Source: Holosporales bacterium
GTDB taxonomy: Bacteria > Pseudomonadota > Alphaproteobacteria > RUG11792
Reading direction: 5' to 3'
DNA length: 46,042 bases
NCBI GenBank assembly: GCA_031267725.1
Contig: JAIRYO010000039.1
Span: 1-46,042, forward strand
This document shows positions 1-45,965 of the stretch, piece after piece. The notes below the pieces were generated by a model. It saw nothing but the letters and a program-made list of their open reading frames with translations. It was not told where the DNA came from and did not search any database. The position numbers and the translations under genes are program-made. The first letter of the stretch is position 1. Each line of letters starts with the position of its first letter.

Positions 1-2
1 AT

Positions 3-188
3 AGGAGGAAGGAACTTGAGAAGTTGGCAAAGGATGCTGGATGTATAGTTTTATTCCTTCCAGCATATTCCCCAGATCTCAATCCGATTGAACAATTCTG
101 GAGTTGGGTTAAGAGAAAACTGAGAGAGATTTTGCACAATTATGCTTCTTTAGACGAAACCATCCAAGCCTCCTTTCAACTAATTTGA
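3..188 (+). mobile_element. IS630/Tc1-mariner family DDE transposase, C-terminal fragment (5' part lies outside the window)
   Basis: Frame +3 reads RRKELEKLAKDAGCIVLFLPAYSPDLNPIEQFWSWVKRKLREILHNYASLDETIQASFQLI*, with stop TGA at 186-188. The LPxYSPDLNPIEQxW block is the signature around the last catalytic acidic residue of IS630-family transposases. Confidence 0.8.
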
Positions 189-190
189 GT

Positions 191-503
191 ATATATAGCA
201 ATCTCTGAATATTACTTAGAGGGATTGGTAATCTATTATATAAAGGTGAAGAGATTGCTTTATATATCTTGTCTAAAGCATTATAAAAAAAATACAAAAA
301 TCATTTAAGCATGGTTTACGGTCTATTCAGACTGGGCCGCCTGAGTCATGTTAAGTTTGAGGCTGGCCGAGTGGTTCTCAAGGTCTTAAGCATTCGTTGA
401 AGATCTATGTTTGCGGCCGGCCGCTTTGTTCAAGCTTTAATAGGAAAAGGATGAAAAGAAAAAAATACAAAAATCATTGGGGCATGGTTTTATGAACGTA
501 TAC
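191..503. repeat. Half copy of the composite palindromic repeat: central module (191-267) plus one complete arm, ending in the terminal module
   Basis: ATATATAGCAATCTCT...AGAGATTGCTTTATATAT (191-267) is followed by the arm ...AAATACAAAAATCATTTAAGCATGGTTTACGGTCTATTCAGACTGGGCCGCC...TTGTTCAAGCTTTAATAGG...CATTGGGGCATGGTTTTATGAACGTATAC. It matches the arms at 23774-24370 and 35632-36333. Confidence 0.9.
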
Positions 504-7391: not shown

Positions 7392-7616
7392 GTATACGTT
7401 CATATAGCTGGGGACAAAAGAGAGGTATCTTGAACTCTCGTTACTCTGTAAGCAATCTCTTCACCCTTTATATACATACCCCCCTCTAAGTAATATTCAG
7501 AGATTGCTATATATCTTGTTTGAAGTATTGTAAAGAAATACAAAAATCATTGGGGCATGGTTTACTGCCTATTCAGGCTGGGCCATGCCGAATTTAGGGT
7601 TGTTACAGAATTCATA
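7392..7616. repeat. Composite repeat copy: terminal module + central module (7449-7514, inverted relative to 191-267) + partial arm
   Basis: GTATACGTTCATATAGCTGGGGACAAAAGAGAGG...AAGCAATCTCTTCACCC...CTCTAAGTAATATTCAGAGATTGCTATATAT CTTGTTTGAAG...AAATACAAAAATCATTGGGGCATGGTTTACTGCCTATTCAGGCTGGGCC. Confidence 0.85.
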
Positions 7617-19101: not shown

Positions 19102-19224
19102 ACTAGCCAAGAATTCAAGTGCGACTCTGAGCATTATATCACTTTTCTTAATTATAGAAAGAGCAATTAAAATAATGTCTGCGTTCACATACCCCAAGGT
19201 AAAAGAAGTGGAATTATTTTTTCC

Positions 19225-19471
19225 CATGACTCCAGCATGCCCCCTCCTGAATAGACCGTAAACCATGCTTAAATGATTTTTGTATTTTTTTTATAATGCT
19301 TTAGACCGGATATATAGCAATCTCTGAATATTACTTAGAGGAGTTGGTTATATATGTAAGGGGGGAAGGAGATGGGTTTACTCCCTATTCAGGTTGGGCC
19401 GCCGAAGTTATGGTTATTCATAGAAGAAAACTAACTTTGAATCTTTTGTCTCAAACTATATGAACGTATAC
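19225..19471. repeat. Composite repeat copy (arm + central module 19310-19370 + short arm + terminal module)
   Basis: ...CTGAATAGACCGTAAACCATGCTTAAATGATTTTTGTATTTTTTTTATAATGCTTTAGACCGGATATATAGCAATCTCTGAATATTACTTAGAGG...GGTTTACTCCCTATTCAGGTTGGGCCGCC...CTTTTGTCTCAAACTATATGAACGTATAC. Confidence 0.9.
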
Positions 19472-19573
19472 AAGTGTGAAAATTTTTATTGTTTTTACAG
19501 AGAGGGCATGTTAATGTTAATTGTAATATGGGGTGGTTTTTCGTAACTGATTTCTTCTGGGGAGGGGATAGTC

Positions 19574-21298
19574 GTGAATTTAAGATATGTACTGAAGTGT
19601 ATGTTCATCTGTATGGTTTTCACCAGTCCGGGACTTCCTGCTTTTTCCGGAGAAGATCCCGATATCAAGAAATTAAAAGAAGCTGATGAAAATTTACAGT
19701 CCGAAATTGCCACCATCAAGAATATTAATGAAAATTTAGAAGCTGAAACTCAAAGTTTGAAAAATACCATAAAGGAGATGAAATCAAAGCTCGAAGAGAC
19801 AGAGGATAGTTTTGAAAAGAAGTTGGATACAATTGATAAAAAGTTGGGGAGCAATGAAGAAGAGATGGAGCAGCTAAACTCACTTCAGGAAAAAGTTGCT
19901 AAAATAGAAGAGGGGACAAGGGCTCCAGAAAGTAATGAACAAATTGAACAATTAACTCAGAAATTGGATAAATTAGAAACTGATATTCAGGCTATATCAG
20001 CTAATGAAGACTCTGATGAGGAATTAAAAAATATAAAAGAGTCTTTAAATTCAGTGACTCAACAACTTGAAAATCAGAAAAACTTTGATGAACAACAAAA
20101 CATAGAGTCCGCAAAAAGCTCTGCAAGGCTTGATAAACTCGAAAGAACGAATGGAGCCGCCGTAATTGGAGCGGCCGGAGCTTCTGTTGGGGGGCTGCTA
20201 GGATCGGTTGTCAAAGAAGGTTTTGGAATTTTATCGCAAAAACTCGAGGTGGACTCCATAAAAGAGCAGCTGCTGAATGGTAACTCCACCATAACCTTAT
20301 CGGAGAACATGACTAAGGAAGAGAAAAAAGAACTTGAGGAGATAGAGTCTGATATACGTAACGGAAAAAGCGATCAGGAAATTCAAGCAAAACTAGATAT
20401 TTTAAAAGATGAAATTGAGAATAGAGAAAAATTACAATCCAGATTTCAACGAGCGACTTTTTATGGGGTGAACCAATCCTTCAAGGATGAAAGCATCATA
20501 ATTCACTTGTTAAACCAAGCTCGCCTAGGCCACAAAATCCCCCCAGAGACAATATTAACGGGAAATATAAATTCGGTTGATGTCGATTTAATAAATACGA
20601 TATACGAGATGGGAGTGCAAAACGCTACGATATTTGATATTTATGATGCCATAAAGCTGATATTCACCGGATCACCGAAAAAAATAATAGTAAAGCAACC
20701 AGATAAATCCACTATTGCCCAACAAAGTGCTAATGGAGCAGTAGTACAGGAGGGGGGAACCATAGCTCCTGGTTCTGCTTCAGAAGCTTCTGTTCAAGGT
20801 GGAGCTGTTCCTCAAGCATCTTCAGTTCAACCTGTTGTTCAACAAAGTACTAGTGGAGCAGTAGTACAGGCTGGAGGAACTATAGTTCCTGGTTCTGCTG
20901 AAGCTTCTGTTCAAGGTGGAGCTATCCCTCAAGCATCTTCAGTTCAACCTGTTGTTCAACAAAGTACTAGTGGAGCAGTAGTACAGGCTGGAGGGACTAT
21001 AGCTCCTGGTTCTGCTTCAACCCTTCAAAAACCTGTAAAAAATGGAAAAACTCCCGAGCAAAGACAGGCTATTTCCAAATCGGATTCGAATATAGCTTTG
21101 GAAAAAAGAAGGCTAGACATGACGGTTATGGACGTAAAGGATAACAGGTATTACGATGTTGAAAGACAAAAATTTGAGCAAATTGCTCAGTCGTCCAAGC
21201 GGTACCCAGAAACGAAAGTGGTGCCACCAACAAATATGGAAGTAAGACCAATTGACCAGGCATCATCCGCTAATTTAAACTTACTTAGCAAGGATTGA
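19574..21298 (+). CDS. Hypothetical secreted coiled-coil protein with a Gly-zipper segment and C-terminal 39/40-aa tandem repeats
   Basis: 574 aa. The GTG start is preceded by GGAGGGG. It has a signal peptide (CMFICMVFTSPGLPAFSG), about 170 aa of E/K/L-rich heptad-like sequence, NGAAVIGAAGASVGGLLGSVV, and then 2.5 copies of QQSTSGAVVQAGGTI(A/V)PGSAEASVQGGA(I/V)PQASSVQPVV. Confidence 0.7.
   Translation: MNLRYVLKCMFICMVFTSPGLPAFSGEDPDIKKLKEADENLQSEIATIKNINENLEAETQSLKNTIKEMKSKLEETEDSFEKKLDTIDKKLGSNEEEMEQLNSLQEKVAKIEEGTRAPESNEQIEQLTQKLDKLETDIQAISANEDSDEELKNIKESLNSVTQQLENQKNFDEQQNIESAKSSARLDKLERTNGAAVIGAAGASVGGLLGSVVKEGFGILSQKLEVDSIKEQLLNGNSTITLSENMTKEEKKELEEIESDIRNGKSDQEIQAKLDILKDEIENREKLQSRFQRATFYGVNQSFKDESIIIHLLNQARLGHKIPPETILTGNINSVDVDLINTIYEMGVQNATIFDIYDAIKLIFTGSPKKIIVKQPDKSTIAQQSANGAVVQEGGTIAPGSASEASVQGGAVPQASSVQPVVQQSTSGAVVQAGGTIVPGSAEASVQGGAIPQASSVQPVVQQSTSGAVVQAGGTIAPGSASTLQKPVKNGKTPEQRQAISKSDSNIALEKRRLDMTVMDVKDNRYYDVERQKFEQIAQSSKRYPETKVVPPTNMEVRPIDQASSANLNLLSKD
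20720..21019 (+). repeat. In-frame tandem repeat, 120 + 117 + ~63 bp
   Basis: Units start with CAACAAAGT(G/A)CTA(A/G)TGGAGCAGTAGTACAGG at 20720, 20840 and 20957. Units 2 and 3 are nearly identical. Unit 1 has a 3-bp insertion and a few substitutions. Confidence 0.9.
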
Positions 21299-21868: not shown

Positions 21869-23729
21869 AAATAGAAGCCGCCATTCTCTCGCTAATTCCT
21901 TTTACCATTTTTATATCTTCCATAGAAGCACTTTTTATAATTTCCGCTGCGCCGAAATGTTCAAGCAATAGTTTTTTTCGAATCGTGCCAATGTTAGGTA
22001 TATCATCTAACACCGATTTTGTTATTCCTCCTTGCCTCTTTTTTCTATGAAAAGTTATTGCAGCTCTATGAGCTTCATTTCTTAACGTTATCAAAAATGA
22101 GAGTAACTCACTGTTGTTTCCTAAAACCATTTCTTCACCGCTTTCAAAGACTATTTTCTCGTCTCCCATCCTTCTATCGTTCTGTTTAGCTATCCCTATT
22201 ATTTTAACATTATCCAGAAATTTAAATTGATTTTTAACTTTAAGGGCAATAGAAAGCTGTGTTTTACCTCCATCTATTATTAGAAGATTCGGAATTTCGG
22301 GAATTCTCGATGATTTGAAGCGTTTTTCAAGAGAAAAGCGCATCATCTCAATATCGTCTCCCCCATTTGCAGTTTTTTCAGAAATAGTAAACTTTCTTGT
22401 TTTGCTTTTCTGTATTTTTCCATATTCAAAAACGACCATTGCTCCGCACGCATTTGTTCCATGAATATGGCTATTATCATAAATTTCTATTCTATCTATG
22501 GTTTTAAGACCAATCAATCGACATAATTCTGCAATTTGCTTTTCGTAGTGGTTAGCATTCTCCTTCTCCAATTTCATCTTAGCATTAAACCTACAAGAAT
22601 CAATTATCCTTCTATATACTTCTCGTTTCGCCACCTCTATCTTTACATTTACTCCGTATGATAATTGCATAAATTCAGAAACCGGCTTCGCGTTCTTAAG
22701 TTCAAATTCAATGATAATTGTAGTTGGAGGAGTAACGCTTTTATAAAATTGAAGAATAAAAGATTCGACCACTTCTGAATCTTCAAATCCTATAGTATTT
22801 TCTAAAAGTAACGATTCACTTCCAACATTCTTTCCCGTTCTGAAAAATGTTATTGAAATGGCGGTATTTTCAAAATTTCGAACAATAGCTATAAAATCTA
22901 TGGAGAATAGATCTTCAATTTGTATATATTGTTTTGATTGAATTTCCGTAATTGCCTTTATTCTGTCTCTAATTACAGCAGCTTGCTCAAAATTCATATC
23001 TTTTGCAGCGCTTCGCATCTTGTCGGTCAACATTTTCCTGACTATCTTATCTTTCCCAGTTAAAAGCTCTTTGGCAAGATTAACATTTTGCGTATATGTA
23101 TCTTTAGATATTTTGTTAACACAGGGGGCTGAACACCTTTTTATAAAATACTGCAAACATGGTCTTGTTCTGTGCACGAATTGGTTATCCGTACAATTTC
23201 TCAGAAGAAATGCTTTTTGTATAACCTTTACGGTTTCGTTGAGAGCGGATATCGCAGGATATGGCCCAAAGAAGTTTTTGTTTTTTGGTTTTAAAGTCCT
23301 ATATTTAAAGATTCTAGGAAATTCATGAACGTCATCAATAACTAGGTATGGGAAAGTTTTATCATCCTTTAAAAGAATGTTATAAAATGGTTTAAGTTCT
23401 TTTATCAAATTACTTTCAAGAAGGAATGATTCAATTTCGGAATTAACGACCGTAACCTCTACATCCTCAATATTAGATATCATCATTTTGGTCCTATTCG
23501 CCAATTGATTAAAGTTAGTATACGAAAGCAGCCTGTTTTTAAGATGTTTGGCTTTTCCAACGTATATAACCTTTTCTTCTGCATTAATCATTTTATAAAT
23601 TCCAGGACGCGAACCTGCTCGTCTCGCAGCCGTTTTTATCGTTTCGATAATCCCTTTTAGCTTTTTCAATCTAGACGCCTCAGTGCCTCGACAAATAAGT
23701 ATGCTAACAAAAAAAATAGGGAAACGCAA
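21837..23729 (-). CDS. uvrC: Excinuclease ABC subunit C
   Basis: GIY-YIG (PGIYKMINAEEKVIYVGKAKHLKNRLLSY), a Cys-rich region (CLQYFIKRCSAPC), a UVR domain (FEQAAVIRDRI), an RNaseH-like endonuclease domain and a C-terminal HhH. The N-terminal 20 codons look spurious; a possible TTG start lies at 23669. Confidence 0.95.
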   Translation of the reverse strand: MRFPIFFVSILICRGTEASRLKKLKGIIETIKTAARRAGSRPGIYKMINAEEKVIYVGKAKHLKNRLLSYTNFNQLANRTKMMISNIEDVEVTVVNSEIESFLLESNLIKELKPFYNILLKDDKTFPYLVIDDVHEFPRIFKYRTLKPKNKNFFGPYPAISALNETVKVIQKAFLLRNCTDNQFVHRTRPCLQYFIKRCSAPCVNKISKDTYTQNVNLAKELLTGKDKIVRKMLTDKMRSAAKDMNFEQAAVIRDRIKAITEIQSKQYIQIEDLFSIDFIAIVRNFENTAISITFFRTGKNVGSESLLLENTIGFEDSEVVESFILQFYKSVTPPTTIIIEFELKNAKPVSEFMQLSYGVNVKIEVAKREVYRRIIDSCRFNAKMKLEKENANHYEKQIAELCRLIGLKTIDRIEIYDNSHIHGTNACGAMVVFEYGKIQKSKTRKFTISEKTANGGDDIEMMRFSLEKRFKSSRIPEIPNLLIIDGGKTQLSIALKVKNQFKFLDNVKIIGIAKQNDRRMGDEKIVFESGEEMVLGNNSELLSFLITLRNEAHRAAITFHRKKRQGGITKSVLDDIPNIGTIRKKLLLEHFGAAEIIKSASMEDIKMVKGISERMAASIFEFFIERKDE

Positions 23730-23773
23730 ATTTGTCCATTTCTAATTCTGTATTGAATTTGAAAGTTAGTTTT

Positions 23774-24370
23774 CGTCTATTAATAACTCTGAATCCTGAA
23801 TAGGCAGTAAAACCATGCTTCAATGATTCGTGTATTTCTTTCTCTTCATCCTTTCCTTTTAAAGCTTGAACAAGGCGATCGAACTCAAACATAAAATGTT
23901 CCACGTGGAACAATTGATTTAAAAGCTTGAGAACCACTCGGCCAGCCTCAACCTTAACATGACTCAGGCGGCCCAGTCTGAATAGACCGTAAACCATGCT
24001 TAAATGATTTTTGTATTTTTTTTATAATGCTTTAGACAGGATATATATAAGCACTCTCTTCACCGTTTTATATATGATTACCAATCCCTCTAAGTAATAT
24101 TCAGAGATTGCTATATATCATGCTTAAAGCATTATAAAAAGAAATACAAAAATCATTGGGGCATGGTTTACGGTCTATTCAGACTGGGCCGCCTGAGTCA
24201 TGTTATGTTTGAGGCTGGCCGAGAGGTTCTCAAGCTTTAACAGGAAAGGATGAAGAGAAAGAAATACTCAAATCATTGAGATATGGTTTAGGGTCTATTC
24301 AGGCTGGGGCAGGCAGGATTCATGGCGAAAAGTAATTCCACATCTTTTGTCTCACATCTGTTTGAACTTA
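23774..24370. repeat. ~600-bp nested palindrome of the composite repeat family (centre module 24041-24118)
   Basis: The left arm (23790-24040) and right arm (24119-24330) are reverse complements. The exception is a 61-bp segment carrying GTTCCACGTGGAAC (23898-23911), present only on the left arm. The right end carries the terminal-module variant AAGTAATTCCACATCTTTTGTCTCACATCTGTTTGAACTT. Confidence 0.92.
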
Positions 24371-24393
24371 CACACATATTGTAAATATCTTGG

Positions 24394-25659: not shown

Positions 25660-25703
25660 CAGAGAGGAGAAAGCCTTTACTCAGATACGACAAAAATCTG
25701 CTC

Positions 25704-26738
25704 CTCTATGAATAACCATGACTCCCGCATGGCCCAGCCTGAATAGAGAGGCTGTATTGTAATCTTCCGATGAGGATATATAAGCAATCTATGAATATTG
25801 CTTAGAGGGGTTGGTAATATATGTAAGAAGTGAAGAGATTGCTTATATACATCTTATCTAAAGCATCGTAAAAAAATACAAAAATAATTGGGGCATGGTT
25901 TACTGCCTATTCAGGTTAGGTCATGCGGGAGTCATGTTGTGTTTGAGGCCAGCCGGATGGTTCAAGCTTTTAAGCGATTGTTCCATAACCATGAATCCGG
26001 CAGCTCAGCCTGAATAGGTAGTAACCCTTGCCCCCCCCTATAGCAACAAAACTCTTCTGATGATTCTCATTCTTTGTTTGTACTTAAGTCTAGCAAGGTA
26101 GTGTTTTCCTGTCCTAAACAGGCTGAAACAAGTCCCCAATGATTTTTGTATTTTTTTACAATGCTTTAAACGGGACATATAGCACTCTCTTCACCCTTTC
26201 CTATTAAAACCTTGAACCACTCGGCCGGCATCAAACATAACCTGAATTCGGCGGCCCAGTCTGGATAGACCGTAAACTATGCTTAAATGATTTTTGTATT
26301 TTTTTTATAATGCTTTAGACAGGATATATAAAGCAATCTTTTCACCTTTATATAATAGATTACCAACCCCTCTAAGTAATATTCAGAGATTGCTATATAT
26401 CATGCTTAAAGCATTATAAAAAGAAATACAAAAATCATTGGGGCATGGTTTACGATCTATTCAGACTGGGCCATGCAGGGTTCAGGTTATGTTTGAGTCC
26501 GGCTGAGTGGTTCTAAAGTTTTTAGGCATTCGTTGAACATTTATGCTTTAGGCCAGCCGGATGGTTCAAGCTTTTAAGCGATTGTTCCAGATGAGACATC
26601 TACGTTTGATGCTATCAGTGGCTCAATCTTAAATTGCTATGTATACCCCACCATTTAAGTATGGTTTACTCCCTGTTCAGGCTGGGCCATGCAGGAGTCA
26701 GAGTTATTGGATGAAAAGTAACTTCACACCTTTTGTTA
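25704..26738. repeat. ~1-kb repeat-only region: several juxtaposed or nested copies of the composite repeat (central modules at 25775-25850 and 26324-26400)
   Basis: Multiple CTGAATAG..GTAAACCATGC / GCATGGTTTAC..CTATTCAG units, half GTTCCA modules (GATTGTTCCATAACC, GATTGTTCCAGATGAG) and AAGCTTTTAAGCGATTG duplicated at ~25966 and ~26568. No ORF of convincing length. Confidence 0.9.
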
Positions 26739-27904: not shown

Positions 27905-28020
27905 TAAAGCTTTTAAGCGATTGTTTCACGTGGAACATTTTATGTTGGAGGCTGGCTTACTCAACTATAACAACAAACATAGCCATGAATCCTGCATATC
28001 CAGGTCTGAATTGGGGCAGC
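27905..28020. repeat. Fragment of the composite repeat with a degenerate palindrome core (GTTTCACGTGGAAC, 27923-27936)
   Basis: AAAGCTTTTAAGCGATTGTTTCACGTGGAACATTTTATGTTGGAGGCTGG...CATGAATCCTGCATATCCAGGTCTGAATTGGGGCAGC. Confidence 0.75.
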
Positions 28021-31526: not shown

Positions 31527-32103
31527 AATTTATAAAATTATCCAAACCTGGTAGGATTGTAGCATATGAAATTTAAATAGATCAACTTAGATTTAGAATA
31601 TCTTTAAATCCCGCAAGGGCTTTTAATTCTCCAATATTATTTTAATAGCTTGTTTATGAAAGCGTGAGTACCAAGCTCTCATTTCAGTGATAGATTATCC
31701 ATTTGGATACAAGGAGCACGGCTAGACTCTCATTAGAGAAACCATTATTTTAGTTTAAGGACTAATTGACGCTTACTCAGTTACGGCAAAAGGTATAACT
31801 AGGAATCCTAGATGGCTATTAATAATTGTTCCACGTGGAACAATTGTTACCGGAATGCTTTAATGCTTTATCTTATCTATGATGTGGGAAAGAAGATGAA
31901 AGAACAACGCACACATTATAACGAGCAGTGAGGCTAATATTGTACTATAACAGAATCATAAGCTGCAAGAATTAAATCGGGTTTAAAAAAAATTGTTCGA
32001 GATTAGATATGAAATCTGCATTTTTGACCAATTTGTATCATCTATTTGCTTTCCATTTTGTACACTAAATTTGTGACCTTTTAGTTCGATTTCAATACGT
32101 AGT

Positions 32104-35611: not shown

Positions 35612-35631
35612 CTCTTTTTCCGATTATGTCT

Positions 35632-36333
35632 GCGTTCATATGATTTTGGACAAAAGGGGCGAGATTACTTTTGTCTAACAACCCCGAATCCTGCCTGCCC
35701 CAGCCTGAATAGGCAGTAAACCATGCTTAAATGATTTGTGTATTTCTTTCTCTTCATCCTTTTCTATTAAAGCTTGAACAAGGCGGCCAGCCTCAAACAT
35801 AAAATGTTCCACGTGGAACAATTGTTTAAAACCTTAGGCCCCTCGGCCAGCCTCAAACATAACATGACTCAGGCGGCCCAGTCTAAATAGACCGTAAACC
35901 ATGCTTAAATGATTTTTGTATTTTTTTTATAATGCTTTAGACAGGATATATAAAGCAATCTCTTCACCTTATATATAATAGATTACCACCCCCTCTAAAC
36001 CATATTCAGAGATTGCTATATATCATGCTTAAAGCATTATAAAAAGAAATACAAAAATCATTGGGGCATGGTTTACGGTCTATTTAGACTGGGCCGCCTG
36101 AGTCATGTTATGTTTGAGGCTGGCCGAGGGGCCTAAGGTTTTAAACAATTGTTCCACGTGGAACATTTATGTTTGAGTTCGGCCGCCTTGTTCAAGCTTT
36201 AATAGAAAAGGATGAAGAGAAAGAAATACACGAATCATTGAAGTATGGTTTAGGGTCTATTCAGGCTTGACCAGGCAGGAGTCAGGAAAAGCAACTCCCC
36301 CTCTCTTTTCCCTCAGGCTATGTGAACATATAC
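35632..36333. repeat. ~700-bp near-perfect nested palindrome of the composite repeat family (centre module ~35946-36023)
   Basis: Terminal modules lie at both ends (GCGTTCATATGATTTTGGACAAAAGG / ...CAGGCTATGTGAACATATAC). 35806-35880 is the exact reverse complement of 36090-36164 (75 nt, checked base by base). Each arm carries two CTGAATAG..GTAAACCATGC units and one GTTCCACGTGGAAC (35806-35819, 36151-36164). Confidence 0.95.
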
Positions 36334-36488
36334 ACTAAAAAGAAAGATAAAAATTATTTTTAATGATATGATGAAGGTGAAGTTTATAACTCTAACTCGT
36401 ATTCATAAAGTAAAATTTTTACTGCAAAATGAATGTGTATTTAAATGTACTTACGAAACGACGTTTTTTATGAGGTGATAATAAATCG

Positions 36489-38567: not shown

Positions 38568-38709
38568 AACTAAACCCCTTTTCTCAAAAATAAATCTCTA
38601 AGTGATGGGGGAAAGTATATTAAAATTTACATAAAAAGTAAAATATTTATCTCATCTCGTATAAAAATATTAGTTATTTATTACTAAAGGGAATGTTATA
38701 GTCTTCAAA

Positions 38710-38951
38710 CATGACTCTTGCCTGCCTCATCCTGAATAGACAGTAAACCATGCTTCAATGATTCGTGTATTTCTTTCTACAATGCTTTAAGCATGATATA
38801 TAGCAATCTTAGAATATTGTTTAGAGGGTTTGATAATCTGTATACAAAGGGGGGGGGAGTCTATTCAGGGGAAGTCGCCGGAGTAATGTTATGTTTGCGG
38901 CTGGCGGATGGTTCAAGCTTTTAAACAAAATGTTCCACGTGGAACATTTTG
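38710..38951. repeat. Composite repeat copy (arm + central module ~38795-38850 + 26-bp perfect palindrome 38926-38951)
   Basis: ...CTGAATAGACAGTAAACCATGCTTCAATGATTCGTGTATTTCTTT...GATATATAGCAATCTTAGAATATTGTTTAGAGGG...GGTTCAAGCTTTTAAACAAAATGTTCCACGTGGAACATTTTG. Confidence 0.85.
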
Positions 38952-45836: not shown

Positions 45837-45925
45837 TCACGCACCGTTCGATAATAACCTATCACTCATGCTAATGTAAATTTATTTTACAAAAAACGTA
45901 CGAGTTCACATGATTGGAGGCATTA

Positions 45926-45965
45926 TCCCACGTGGAACATTAGATGCTCCACGTGAAAAATTGTT
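45926..45965. repeat. Two degenerate copies of the CACGTG palindrome core
   Basis: ATCCCACGTGGAACATTAGATGCTCCACGTGAAAAATTG. Compare the consensus GTTCCACGTGGAACATT. Confidence 0.5.

Follow-up and report, generated by a model that had tools for sequence, protein, structure and literature searches.

A truncated transposase gene of the IS630 family of insertion sequences (IS) opens contig JAIRYO010000039.1 of a Holosporales bacterium (assembly GCA_031267725.1), the 46,042-nucleotide stretch of DNA analysed here and referred to as the window, and a 77-bp module bounded by inverted repeats adjoins it. The initial annotation placed the module (191–267) 2 bp after the transposase stop codon (TGA, 186–188), which is literally correct, and offered two readings of this adjacency, namely that the module derives from the IS or that the IS merely landed in a pre-existing palindrome. 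Our analysis favours, with a probability of about 70% for its two parts jointly, a family of recombining, non-coding hairpin repeats into which an unrelated IS630 derivative later inserted at a TA dinucleotide.

The truncated transposase recognized in the initial annotation is borne out by translation, which places its last 61 codons at window positions 3–185, ahead of the stop codon, and by a match of this segment to the Pfam domain DDE_3 (PF13358, E value 1.6e-12). The window thus holds, on the forward strand at 1–191, the 3' part of an IS630-family element that the start of the contig truncates. When the 61-residue fragment was used as a protein query, only short fragments were returned, one of which (P0009) sits at the end of locus L161 (3377 bp, GCA_031269095.1). 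Because the last 107 nucleotides of L161 match window positions 1–107 at 106 of 107 sites, L161 is taken to hold this IS a second time, and the two contigs probably belong to one genome. Its open reading frames (ORFs) match HTH_Tnp_IS630 (PF01710, E 3.9e-9) and DDE_3 (PF13358, E 1.4e-21), and the IS630-type helix-turn-helix and the catalytic domain by which the family is recognized are both present across the window and L161 copies.

The two copies also reveal the two ends of the element. The left end, read from L161, consists of TA followed by TACCTAAATTAGTTGA, which starts at position 2836; the junction there reads ...AAAAG TA TACCTAAATTAGTTGACAAAAGCCT... and leads into an 82-residue ORF of the IS630 helix-turn-helix type. 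The right end, TCAACTAATTTGAGTA followed by TA, occupies window positions 175–191 on the forward strand and holds the stop codon; its reverse complement, TACTCAAATTAGTTGA (over a longer stretch, TACTCAAATTAGTTGAAAGGAGGCT), pairs with the L161 left end. As inverted repeats the left and right ends are identical at 20 of 30 positions, a score matched by none of 2000 shuffles, and short terminal inverted repeats of the IS630 type are therefore present, each end coming from a different copy. Related copies of the IS found in three other loci from different samples (L162, L163 and L165) align with the window copy up to ...TTGAGTA and diverge immediately afterwards, TA follows the right end in L162 and L163, and on the left side the similarity of the L161 copy to L162 starts at TAC.... 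These alignments suggest that the IS ends at window position 191, with the TA at 192–193 as the presumed target duplicate and the TGA lying within the terminal repeat. The module appears 2 bp past the TGA because the stop codon of the IS falls within its terminal repeat, an arrangement in common with IS630 elements.

Joining positions 2836–3377 of L161 to window positions 1–191, that is, two copies, gives an element with an inferred length of about 620 bp. Like IS630 and the Tc1/mariner superfamily to which it belongs, it combines DDE_3 with HTH_Tnp_IS630, has short terminal inverted repeats and is bordered by TA at both ends. Unlike a working IS630, it is internally deleted, its frame is split and it encodes no functional transposase: in L161 the 82-residue helix-turn-helix ORF is followed by a stop and then by the C-terminal part of DDE_3, and relative to L162 about 75 codons are gone after ...NKPL and about 17 after ...GRAV, leaving no intact transposase gene. 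Because of its length of about 620 bp and these internal deletions, the L161 copy is considered non-autonomous. The same metagenome-assembled genome (MAG) contains at least seven further IS fragments of 47–68 residues, which are decayed, non-autonomous copies, and every fragment found in it is short. Some of the fragments in the MAG, at least eight in all, are nearly identical to each other, which suggests recent multiplication or homogenisation of the defective element. One 53-residue fragment (P0037) shares its 90% protein cluster with a 331-residue 'porphobilinogen synthase' (P0042), presumably through a fused gene call or a quirk of the clustering.

On the other side of the junction, the module at 191–267 (forward strand, GAATATT end on the left) begins with ATATATAGCAATCTCT at 191–206, continues with a 43-nt asymmetric loop and ends with AGAGATTGCTTTATATAT; its inverted ends span 191–206 and 250–267, the inverted partner of the first 16 bp lying at 250–265 with one mismatch. 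Allowing up to two mismatches, the window has 13 matches to the 16-bp end motif where 0.06 would be expected, a number reached in none of 100 shuffles, and ten copies of the module can be distinguished. The 16-bp terminal inverted repeats said to bound the module hold for six of these (191, 7449, 24041, 25776, 26324 and 35946), while the other four, at 14793, 17083, 19310 and 38796, are short forms that lack the second inverted end. In the short forms the TCACC side is fused directly to ...GGTTTAC..CTATTCAGG: ...GAAGAG is joined to CATGGTTTAC..CTATTCAGG, and the second inverted end, the inner arm and AAATACAAAAATCATT are missing, the difference from the long form being an inverted copy of about 58 nt. 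On the GAATATT side, 32 nt (ATATATAGCAATCT..GAATAT...TTAGA.G) are nearly invariant in all ten copies, and the other half varies. The inner arm segment is never seen apart from the inverted end next to it, the window contains no empty arm–arm junction (...GCTTTAAGCATGATATCATGCTTAAAGC...) without a module, and taking the 77 bp as a unit of its own is therefore one possible segmentation. From these alignments, the module is best described as the asymmetric core of a repeat, made up of a loop of about 44 nt and the innermost 16 bp of both arms, with (TA)3–4 at each end. Judged as a MITE (miniature inverted-repeat transposable element) in the general sense, it is small, non-coding and multi-copy and has terminal inverted repeats in six of ten copies; independent sites with matching empty sites were not found within the window, nor was any module outside the context of its arms. 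As single-stranded DNA the 191–267 copy is predicted to fold into a hairpin of -9.5 kcal/mol (z -3.8); three of five copies folded in this way are significantly more stable than their shuffles (z -3.7 to -4.4), and two are not (z -1.3 and -1.9). Copy 25776 carries the same TAAGC variant in both inverted ends, which suggests a concerted change within the copy. A module-borne promoter was considered and dropped, no match to the promoter consensus having been found in the module.

The junction itself fits an insertion of the IS into a repeat that was already there. From position 191 onward, the window is 87–92% identical to 24118–23808, 36023–35718 and 26400–26204, the 92% being reached with copies such as the last. 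In intact copies an A-type arm precedes this module end (...GCTTTAAGCATG followed directly by ATATATAGCAATCTCT), and it is precisely this arm, the flank of the same module end elsewhere, that is missing at the IS end in the window. IS630 and Tc1/mariner elements as a rule insert at TA. The sequence of the window junction, GAGTA-TA-TATAGC (...GAGTA plus TATATAGC), is that predicted for an insertion at catgA/TA/TATAGC, and TA abuts both the left end in L161 (2834–2835) and the right end in the window (192–193); the latter TA is part of the module's (TA)n edge, and the TA run leaves an ambiguity of 1–3 nt. The second reading of the initial annotation, an IS630 element that landed in the TA-rich edge of a pre-existing palindrome, therefore fits both the TA junction and the absent arm. 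The missing arm, which that reading had placed beyond the other end of the IS, is predicted to lie at the left junction, which would read ...GCTTTAAGCATGA-TA-TACCTAAATTAG, beyond the contig start.

The converse reading, in which the module would be a MITE spawned by the IS630 element, or its true right end, and would have seeded the palindromes, has several attractions. The module follows the transposase stop codon directly, its ends are TA-rich and IS630 elements insert at TA, and RUP is a known IS630-derived MITE (PMC2229807). In addition, the 8-mer CAGAGATT stands beside both the left end in L161 and the right end in the window, since the left flank in L161, CCAGAGATTAAAAG-TA, has it in common with the module inverted end at a near-equal distance from the IS. 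The comparison of the IS termini with the module inverted repeats, proposed in the initial annotation, argues strongly against this derivation. In local alignments the IS ends scored against both module ends at chance level (shuffle fractions 0.21–0.99), as did 60-nt IS ends against the 709-bp composite repeat described below, and a BLAST search of the IS (about 620 bp) against the window returned no match other than itself. The terminal repeats resembling those of the parent IS that characterize a RUP-like MITE were thus not found. Nine of the ten modules lack an adjoining IS, and the related IS copies end at GAGTA followed by TA with no module beyond. The topology of the module is also inside-out: its ATATAT runs point outward and its CTCT/AGAG bases inward, whereas a derivative formed by internal deletion from an IS with the end ...TATATAGCAATCTCTG would have them the other way round. 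Each end of the module is a (TA)3–4 run, so a TA duplication would be indistinguishable from the repeat itself. As for the 8-mer, the L161 left flank aligns over its full length, base by base, with an outer layer of the repeat family, CTATTCAGGTTGGG..GGAGTCATGGTTATTCATAGAAGAAAAC-TA at window positions 19385–19423 (alignable over 19372–19423), and with the reverse complement of 25690–25760, so that the IS in L161 sits at the TA equivalent to window positions 19422–19423. The idea that the 8-mer is an IS terminal repeat reaching into the module was rejected for this reason, and its occurrence on both sides of the IS is best read as a coincidence. Judging by this alignment, the second IS copy entered another layer of these repeats, and there is therefore no fixed association between IS and module. 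On this evidence a descent of the module from the IS is very unlikely, and apart from these insertions the two appear to be unrelated.

Comparison of the window with itself revealed 13 repeat loci with a total length of 5167 bp, or 11% of the window, all of them intergenic. The largest loci, 23773–24375 and 35627–36335, are palindromes of 600–700 bp whose arms are 88–97% complementary and whose only asymmetric part is the central loop of about 44 nt; within 35683–36286, a 16-bp inverted repeat with a 44-nt spacer lies at the palindrome centre. The arms are layered, the segment AAATACAAAAATCATT..GCATGGTTTAC..CTATTCAGGCTGGGCC occurring once near the centre and again near the outside, and the remaining loci hold different subsets of layers. 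Intergenic palindromic units in variable mosaics, the hallmark of repeats of the REP/BIME type (bacterial interspersed mosaic elements, BIMEs, built from repetitive extragenic palindromic units, REPs), are thus seen at all 13 loci. Database comparisons point to a narrow distribution. The arm motif had no match in the GTDB representative genomes, the module motif had one chance match in the JGI metagenomes, inside a coding region (L166), and a 604-bp composite had no BLAST match among 165 loci that included about 20 Holosporales Lon regions. An Rfam scan of the window returned three tRNAs only and nothing for the repeat family, and a literature search for palindromic repeats in Holosporales found nothing relevant. 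Peptides encoded by the repeats occur only in proteins of one NCBI Holosporales MAG and in one JGI protein. From these searches, the repeats look like an undescribed, lineage-specific, non-coding and MITE-like family, that is, a new family of a known type.

The individual copies illustrate the range of these mosaics. Beyond the first module, a B-type arm and outer layers extend over 268–503 (forward strand) and end in the outermost motif TATGAACGTATAC just upstream of lon. The copy at 7449–7605 (reverse strand) has a partial second inverted end and one mosaic arm, its TCACC side being without an arm. Four copies are short forms: 14692–14863 (forward), with an A arm followed by a module without the TCACC-side inverted end; 16964–17210 (reverse), with an A arm and a palindrome that reaches outward to GATACTCGTCTAT; 19183–19472 (forward), with a B arm at the GAATATT end; and 38708–38950 (forward), with a module from 38796. 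The long-form composites are found at 23773–24375 (reverse, about 600 bp, module 24041–24118), at 26113–26608 (reverse, module 26324–26400, plus a truncated module end at 26175–26196) and at 35627–36335 (reverse, module 35946–36023), the last being the largest palindrome of all (709 bp). In the copy at 25720–26034 (forward, module 25776–25849), an unrelated 30-nt segment, agaggctgtattgtaatcttccgatgagg at 25746–25775, replaces the A arm; it occurs once in the window and has no clear similarity to the IS. Its interpretation as an IS excision remnant was dropped, only TGAG being common to it and the IS end.

Two further layers deserve mention. The outermost layer carries the motif CTTTTGTCTCAAAyyATATGAACGTATAC (..ATATGAACGTATAC), found at 491–503, 15167–15189, 17248–17270 and 19449–19471 on the forward strand and at 7392–7414 and 12181–12203 on the reverse strand, as a diverged inverted pair at 35627–35655 and 36306–36334, and at about 2715–2740 of L161 on the reverse strand. 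In six of seven cases it is directed at the start of a gene or tRNA 70–110 nt away, and it may be a repeat-borne promoter or the outermost terminal repeat. A small palindrome with a CACGTG centre, TTGTTCCACGTGGAACA, occurs both alone and as a layer of composites, at 11005–11022, 27921–27938, 31826–31843, 38930–38947 and 45923–45939 as well as in the arms of the big composites, one per arm, at 23896, 35804, 36149 and 14992. The inner element of 35627–36335 lies between two full GTTCCACGTGGAAC copies, and 10950–11078 contains a single central copy, an arrangement that looks like nesting at the palindrome centre. A 97-residue ORF at 23704–23997 (reverse strand) lies wholly within a repeat, and similar ORFs are annotated as 'hypothetical' in the NCBI MAG (LBI95_03570, LBI95_03485); all of these are probably spurious gene calls.

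The initial annotation reported that the module occurs in both orientations relative to the same flanking arm. Such an observation is uninformative unless the arms can be distinguished, because the arms of any palindrome are inverted repeats. Three linked markers tell arm A (CCC / C / AGCATG, within ..CATGCCCCAATG..ATTTCTTT..TTTAAGCATG) from arm B (TTA / T / GACAGG, within ..CATGCTTAAATG..ATTTTTTT..TTTAGACAGG). A arms are found at the GAATATT end in copies 14793, 17083, 24118, 26400 and 36023 and, less clearly, 38796; B arms are found at the TCACC end in copies 191, 24041, 26324 and 35946, the arm at 268–503 being identical to the B reference at 61 of 62 positions. The copy at 19310 departs from this rule: the arm at its GAATATT end matches B at 61 of 62 positions and A at 54. 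This copy is a real flip relative to those at 191, 24041, 26324 and 35946. Only 8 nt separate its arm marker GACCGG from the end-specific TAGC, which places the breakpoint in the TA run. The other proposed flip, at 7449–7514, proved ambiguous. Its arm at 7515 is a mosaic: it scores 53 against A and 50 against B, follows A at both distal markers, and resembles B only over the proximal 10 nt or so. GGGG and ACTGCC are common to this arm and the one at 25850, which adjoins the other end of the module, and a second flip is thereby suggested with weaker support. Inversion by recombination between inverted arms, as put forward in the initial annotation, would be a reasonable account of the one clear flip.

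Taken together, we propose that layered, mosaic palindromic repeats came to fill intergenic regions of this genome, and that an internally deleted, non-autonomous IS630 element of about 620 bp then inserted at a TA of the (TA) run at a module edge, so that core and A arm were separated. The variable orientation of the core would most probably result from exchange between inverted arms about 90% identical, within or between copies, by homologous recombination or gene conversion; such exchange, together with deletions, would also account for the short forms and for arms of mosaic type. The IS ends, their dissimilarity to the module, the TA junction, the structures of the copies and the arm types are seen in the sequences themselves, and from them we infer in what order these events took place, how the core was flipped and any mobility of the repeats.

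Several observations weigh against this proposal. The 19310 flip, the divergent patch between arms A and B and the IS insertion all have their breakpoints in the TA run, and coinciding breakpoints would also fit a discrete core that inserts or inverts independently. The far side of the IS lies off the contig and the predicted A arm is unobserved; likewise, the IS ends come from two copies (one mismatch in the 107-nt overlap), and a TA duplication around a single copy was not seen. The presence of CAGAGATT in both the L161 left flank and the module inverted end, which we attribute to the outer layer GGTTATTCATAGA.., could possibly indicate a target preference or a remote relation between IS and module. 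Finally, the assembly is inferred to be a short-read metagenome assembly, in which chimeric joins between repeat copies are possible.

The main rival to our proposal takes the 77-bp core as a discrete, TA-targeting MITE that was moved by some transposase and entered the TA at the centre of palindromes already present, more than once and in either orientation. The 16-bp inverted ends finish in TA runs, the 19310 breakpoint lies within about 8 nt of the module edge (GACCGG going with the arm, TAGC with the GAATATT end), a non-complementary 6-nt arm patch falls exactly at that edge, and all three of the different breakpoints meet at the TA run; the outer layer, too, is nested at a centre, with two GTTCCACGTGGAAC copies in 35627–36335 against the single central one in 10950–11078. 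Such an element should, however, leave solo modules or empty arm–arm junctions, and the window contains neither. Four of the ten copies lack one inverted end, the inner arm always co-occurs with the inverted end, which makes the boundaries of the unit arguable, and no candidate transposase is encoded in the window. We regard a discrete core as unlikely. A more novel reading would be that the repeats nest in themselves from the inside, each layer, including the core, inserting at or inverting around the exact centre of a palindrome; the TA run would serve as the centre for the core and CAC/GTG for the outer layer, building up onion-like palindromes of up to 700 bp. If so, adjacent genes would receive a conserved promoter-like motif from the outermost layer, and we give this reading only a small chance.

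A programmed switch, in which a site-specific recombinase would invert the core in situ at its 16-bp inverted repeats, would also account for an asymmetric segment bounded by inverted repeats and found in both arm-relative orientations among the copies. No invertase gene lies beside any copy, the sole recombinase gene of the window being XerC/D-like (11149–12096), and the module contains no promoter-like site. A search for sequencing runs in which both orientations might appear at one locus found none. A 44-nt spacer is very short for recombinase synapsis, which further counts against such a switch, and it appears highly improbable. The flip or the IS–module junction might instead be an assembly artefact, a chimeric join of repeat copies, given that the contig starts inside a multi-copy IS and contains many repeats that are 80–97% alike. 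A single read or k-mer, however, is long enough to span the 6–45 nt between the asymmetric loop and the arm markers, the 19310 copy has private substitutions in both arm and module, and a coherent 300-nt copy runs from 191 into unique DNA upstream of lon, all of which make an artefact a scarcely credible explanation. Our preferred explanation remains a recombining repeat family with a later IS insertion.

Comparison with known systems places both components in familiar territory. RUP of Streptococcus pneumoniae is a MITE thought to be mobilised by IS630-Spn1, to which it is linked by similar terminal repeats and TA targets (PMC2229807). The module resembles RUP in being small, non-coding, multi-copy and intergenic, with inverted, TA-rich ends beside an IS630-type element; it differs in that its terminal repeats do not resemble those of the IS and in that it never occurs outside palindromic arms. 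BIMEs are mosaic palindromic repeats built from REPs (PMC2817692). The family described here is like BIMEs, the Correia/NEMIS elements and the Rickettsia palindromic elements in its hairpin-forming, recombining modules with long and short forms, its restriction to one lineage and its abundance in a host-associated alphaproteobacterium. It is unlike them in having no similarity to any Rfam family and in its four or more concentric layers, which reach 600–700 bp. Rickettsia palindromic elements insert in frame into genes, which the Holosporales family does not. No gene of the RAYT type (IS200-like) was found among the 35 ORFs of the window that were scanned.

The repeats lie among genes of a largely housekeeping character (tatD, lptCAB, lpxA, fabZ, infC, greA, ispDF, uvrC, the bio operon and transporters), in DNA with a GC content of about 36%. 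Lon (619–2925) is 72–76% identical to Lon of uncultured Holosporales from the rumen and termite gut, from which the window is taken to be chromosomal DNA of an uncultured member of this order, probably part of the MAG GCA_031269095.1. A lone phage-type large terminase gene (Terminase_6N/6C, 9477–10745, reverse strand) stands beside the gene for the XerC/D-like tyrosine recombinase (11149–12096, reverse strand), separated from it by the repeat locus 10859–11147; the pair may be a remnant of a gene-transfer agent or a prophage. A 574-residue ORF at 19574–21298, with no clear Pfam family and weak coiled-coil-type matches only, contains an internal repeat of about 300 bp (20712–21019) that is unrelated to the palindromic family.

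To conclude, the adjacency of IS and module is in itself ordinary and comes down to a repeat with a decayed IS630 element at one of its TA dinucleotides. The repeats are of modest interest: undescribed layered palindromes make up about one tenth of this stretch of a reduced endosymbiont genome and lie beside most gene starts. Short-read assemblies break at repeats of this kind, and gene callers can be misled by them, as the 97-residue ORF called inside one of them illustrates. The mosaic arms and the single flipped core are signs that the copies continue to recombine.

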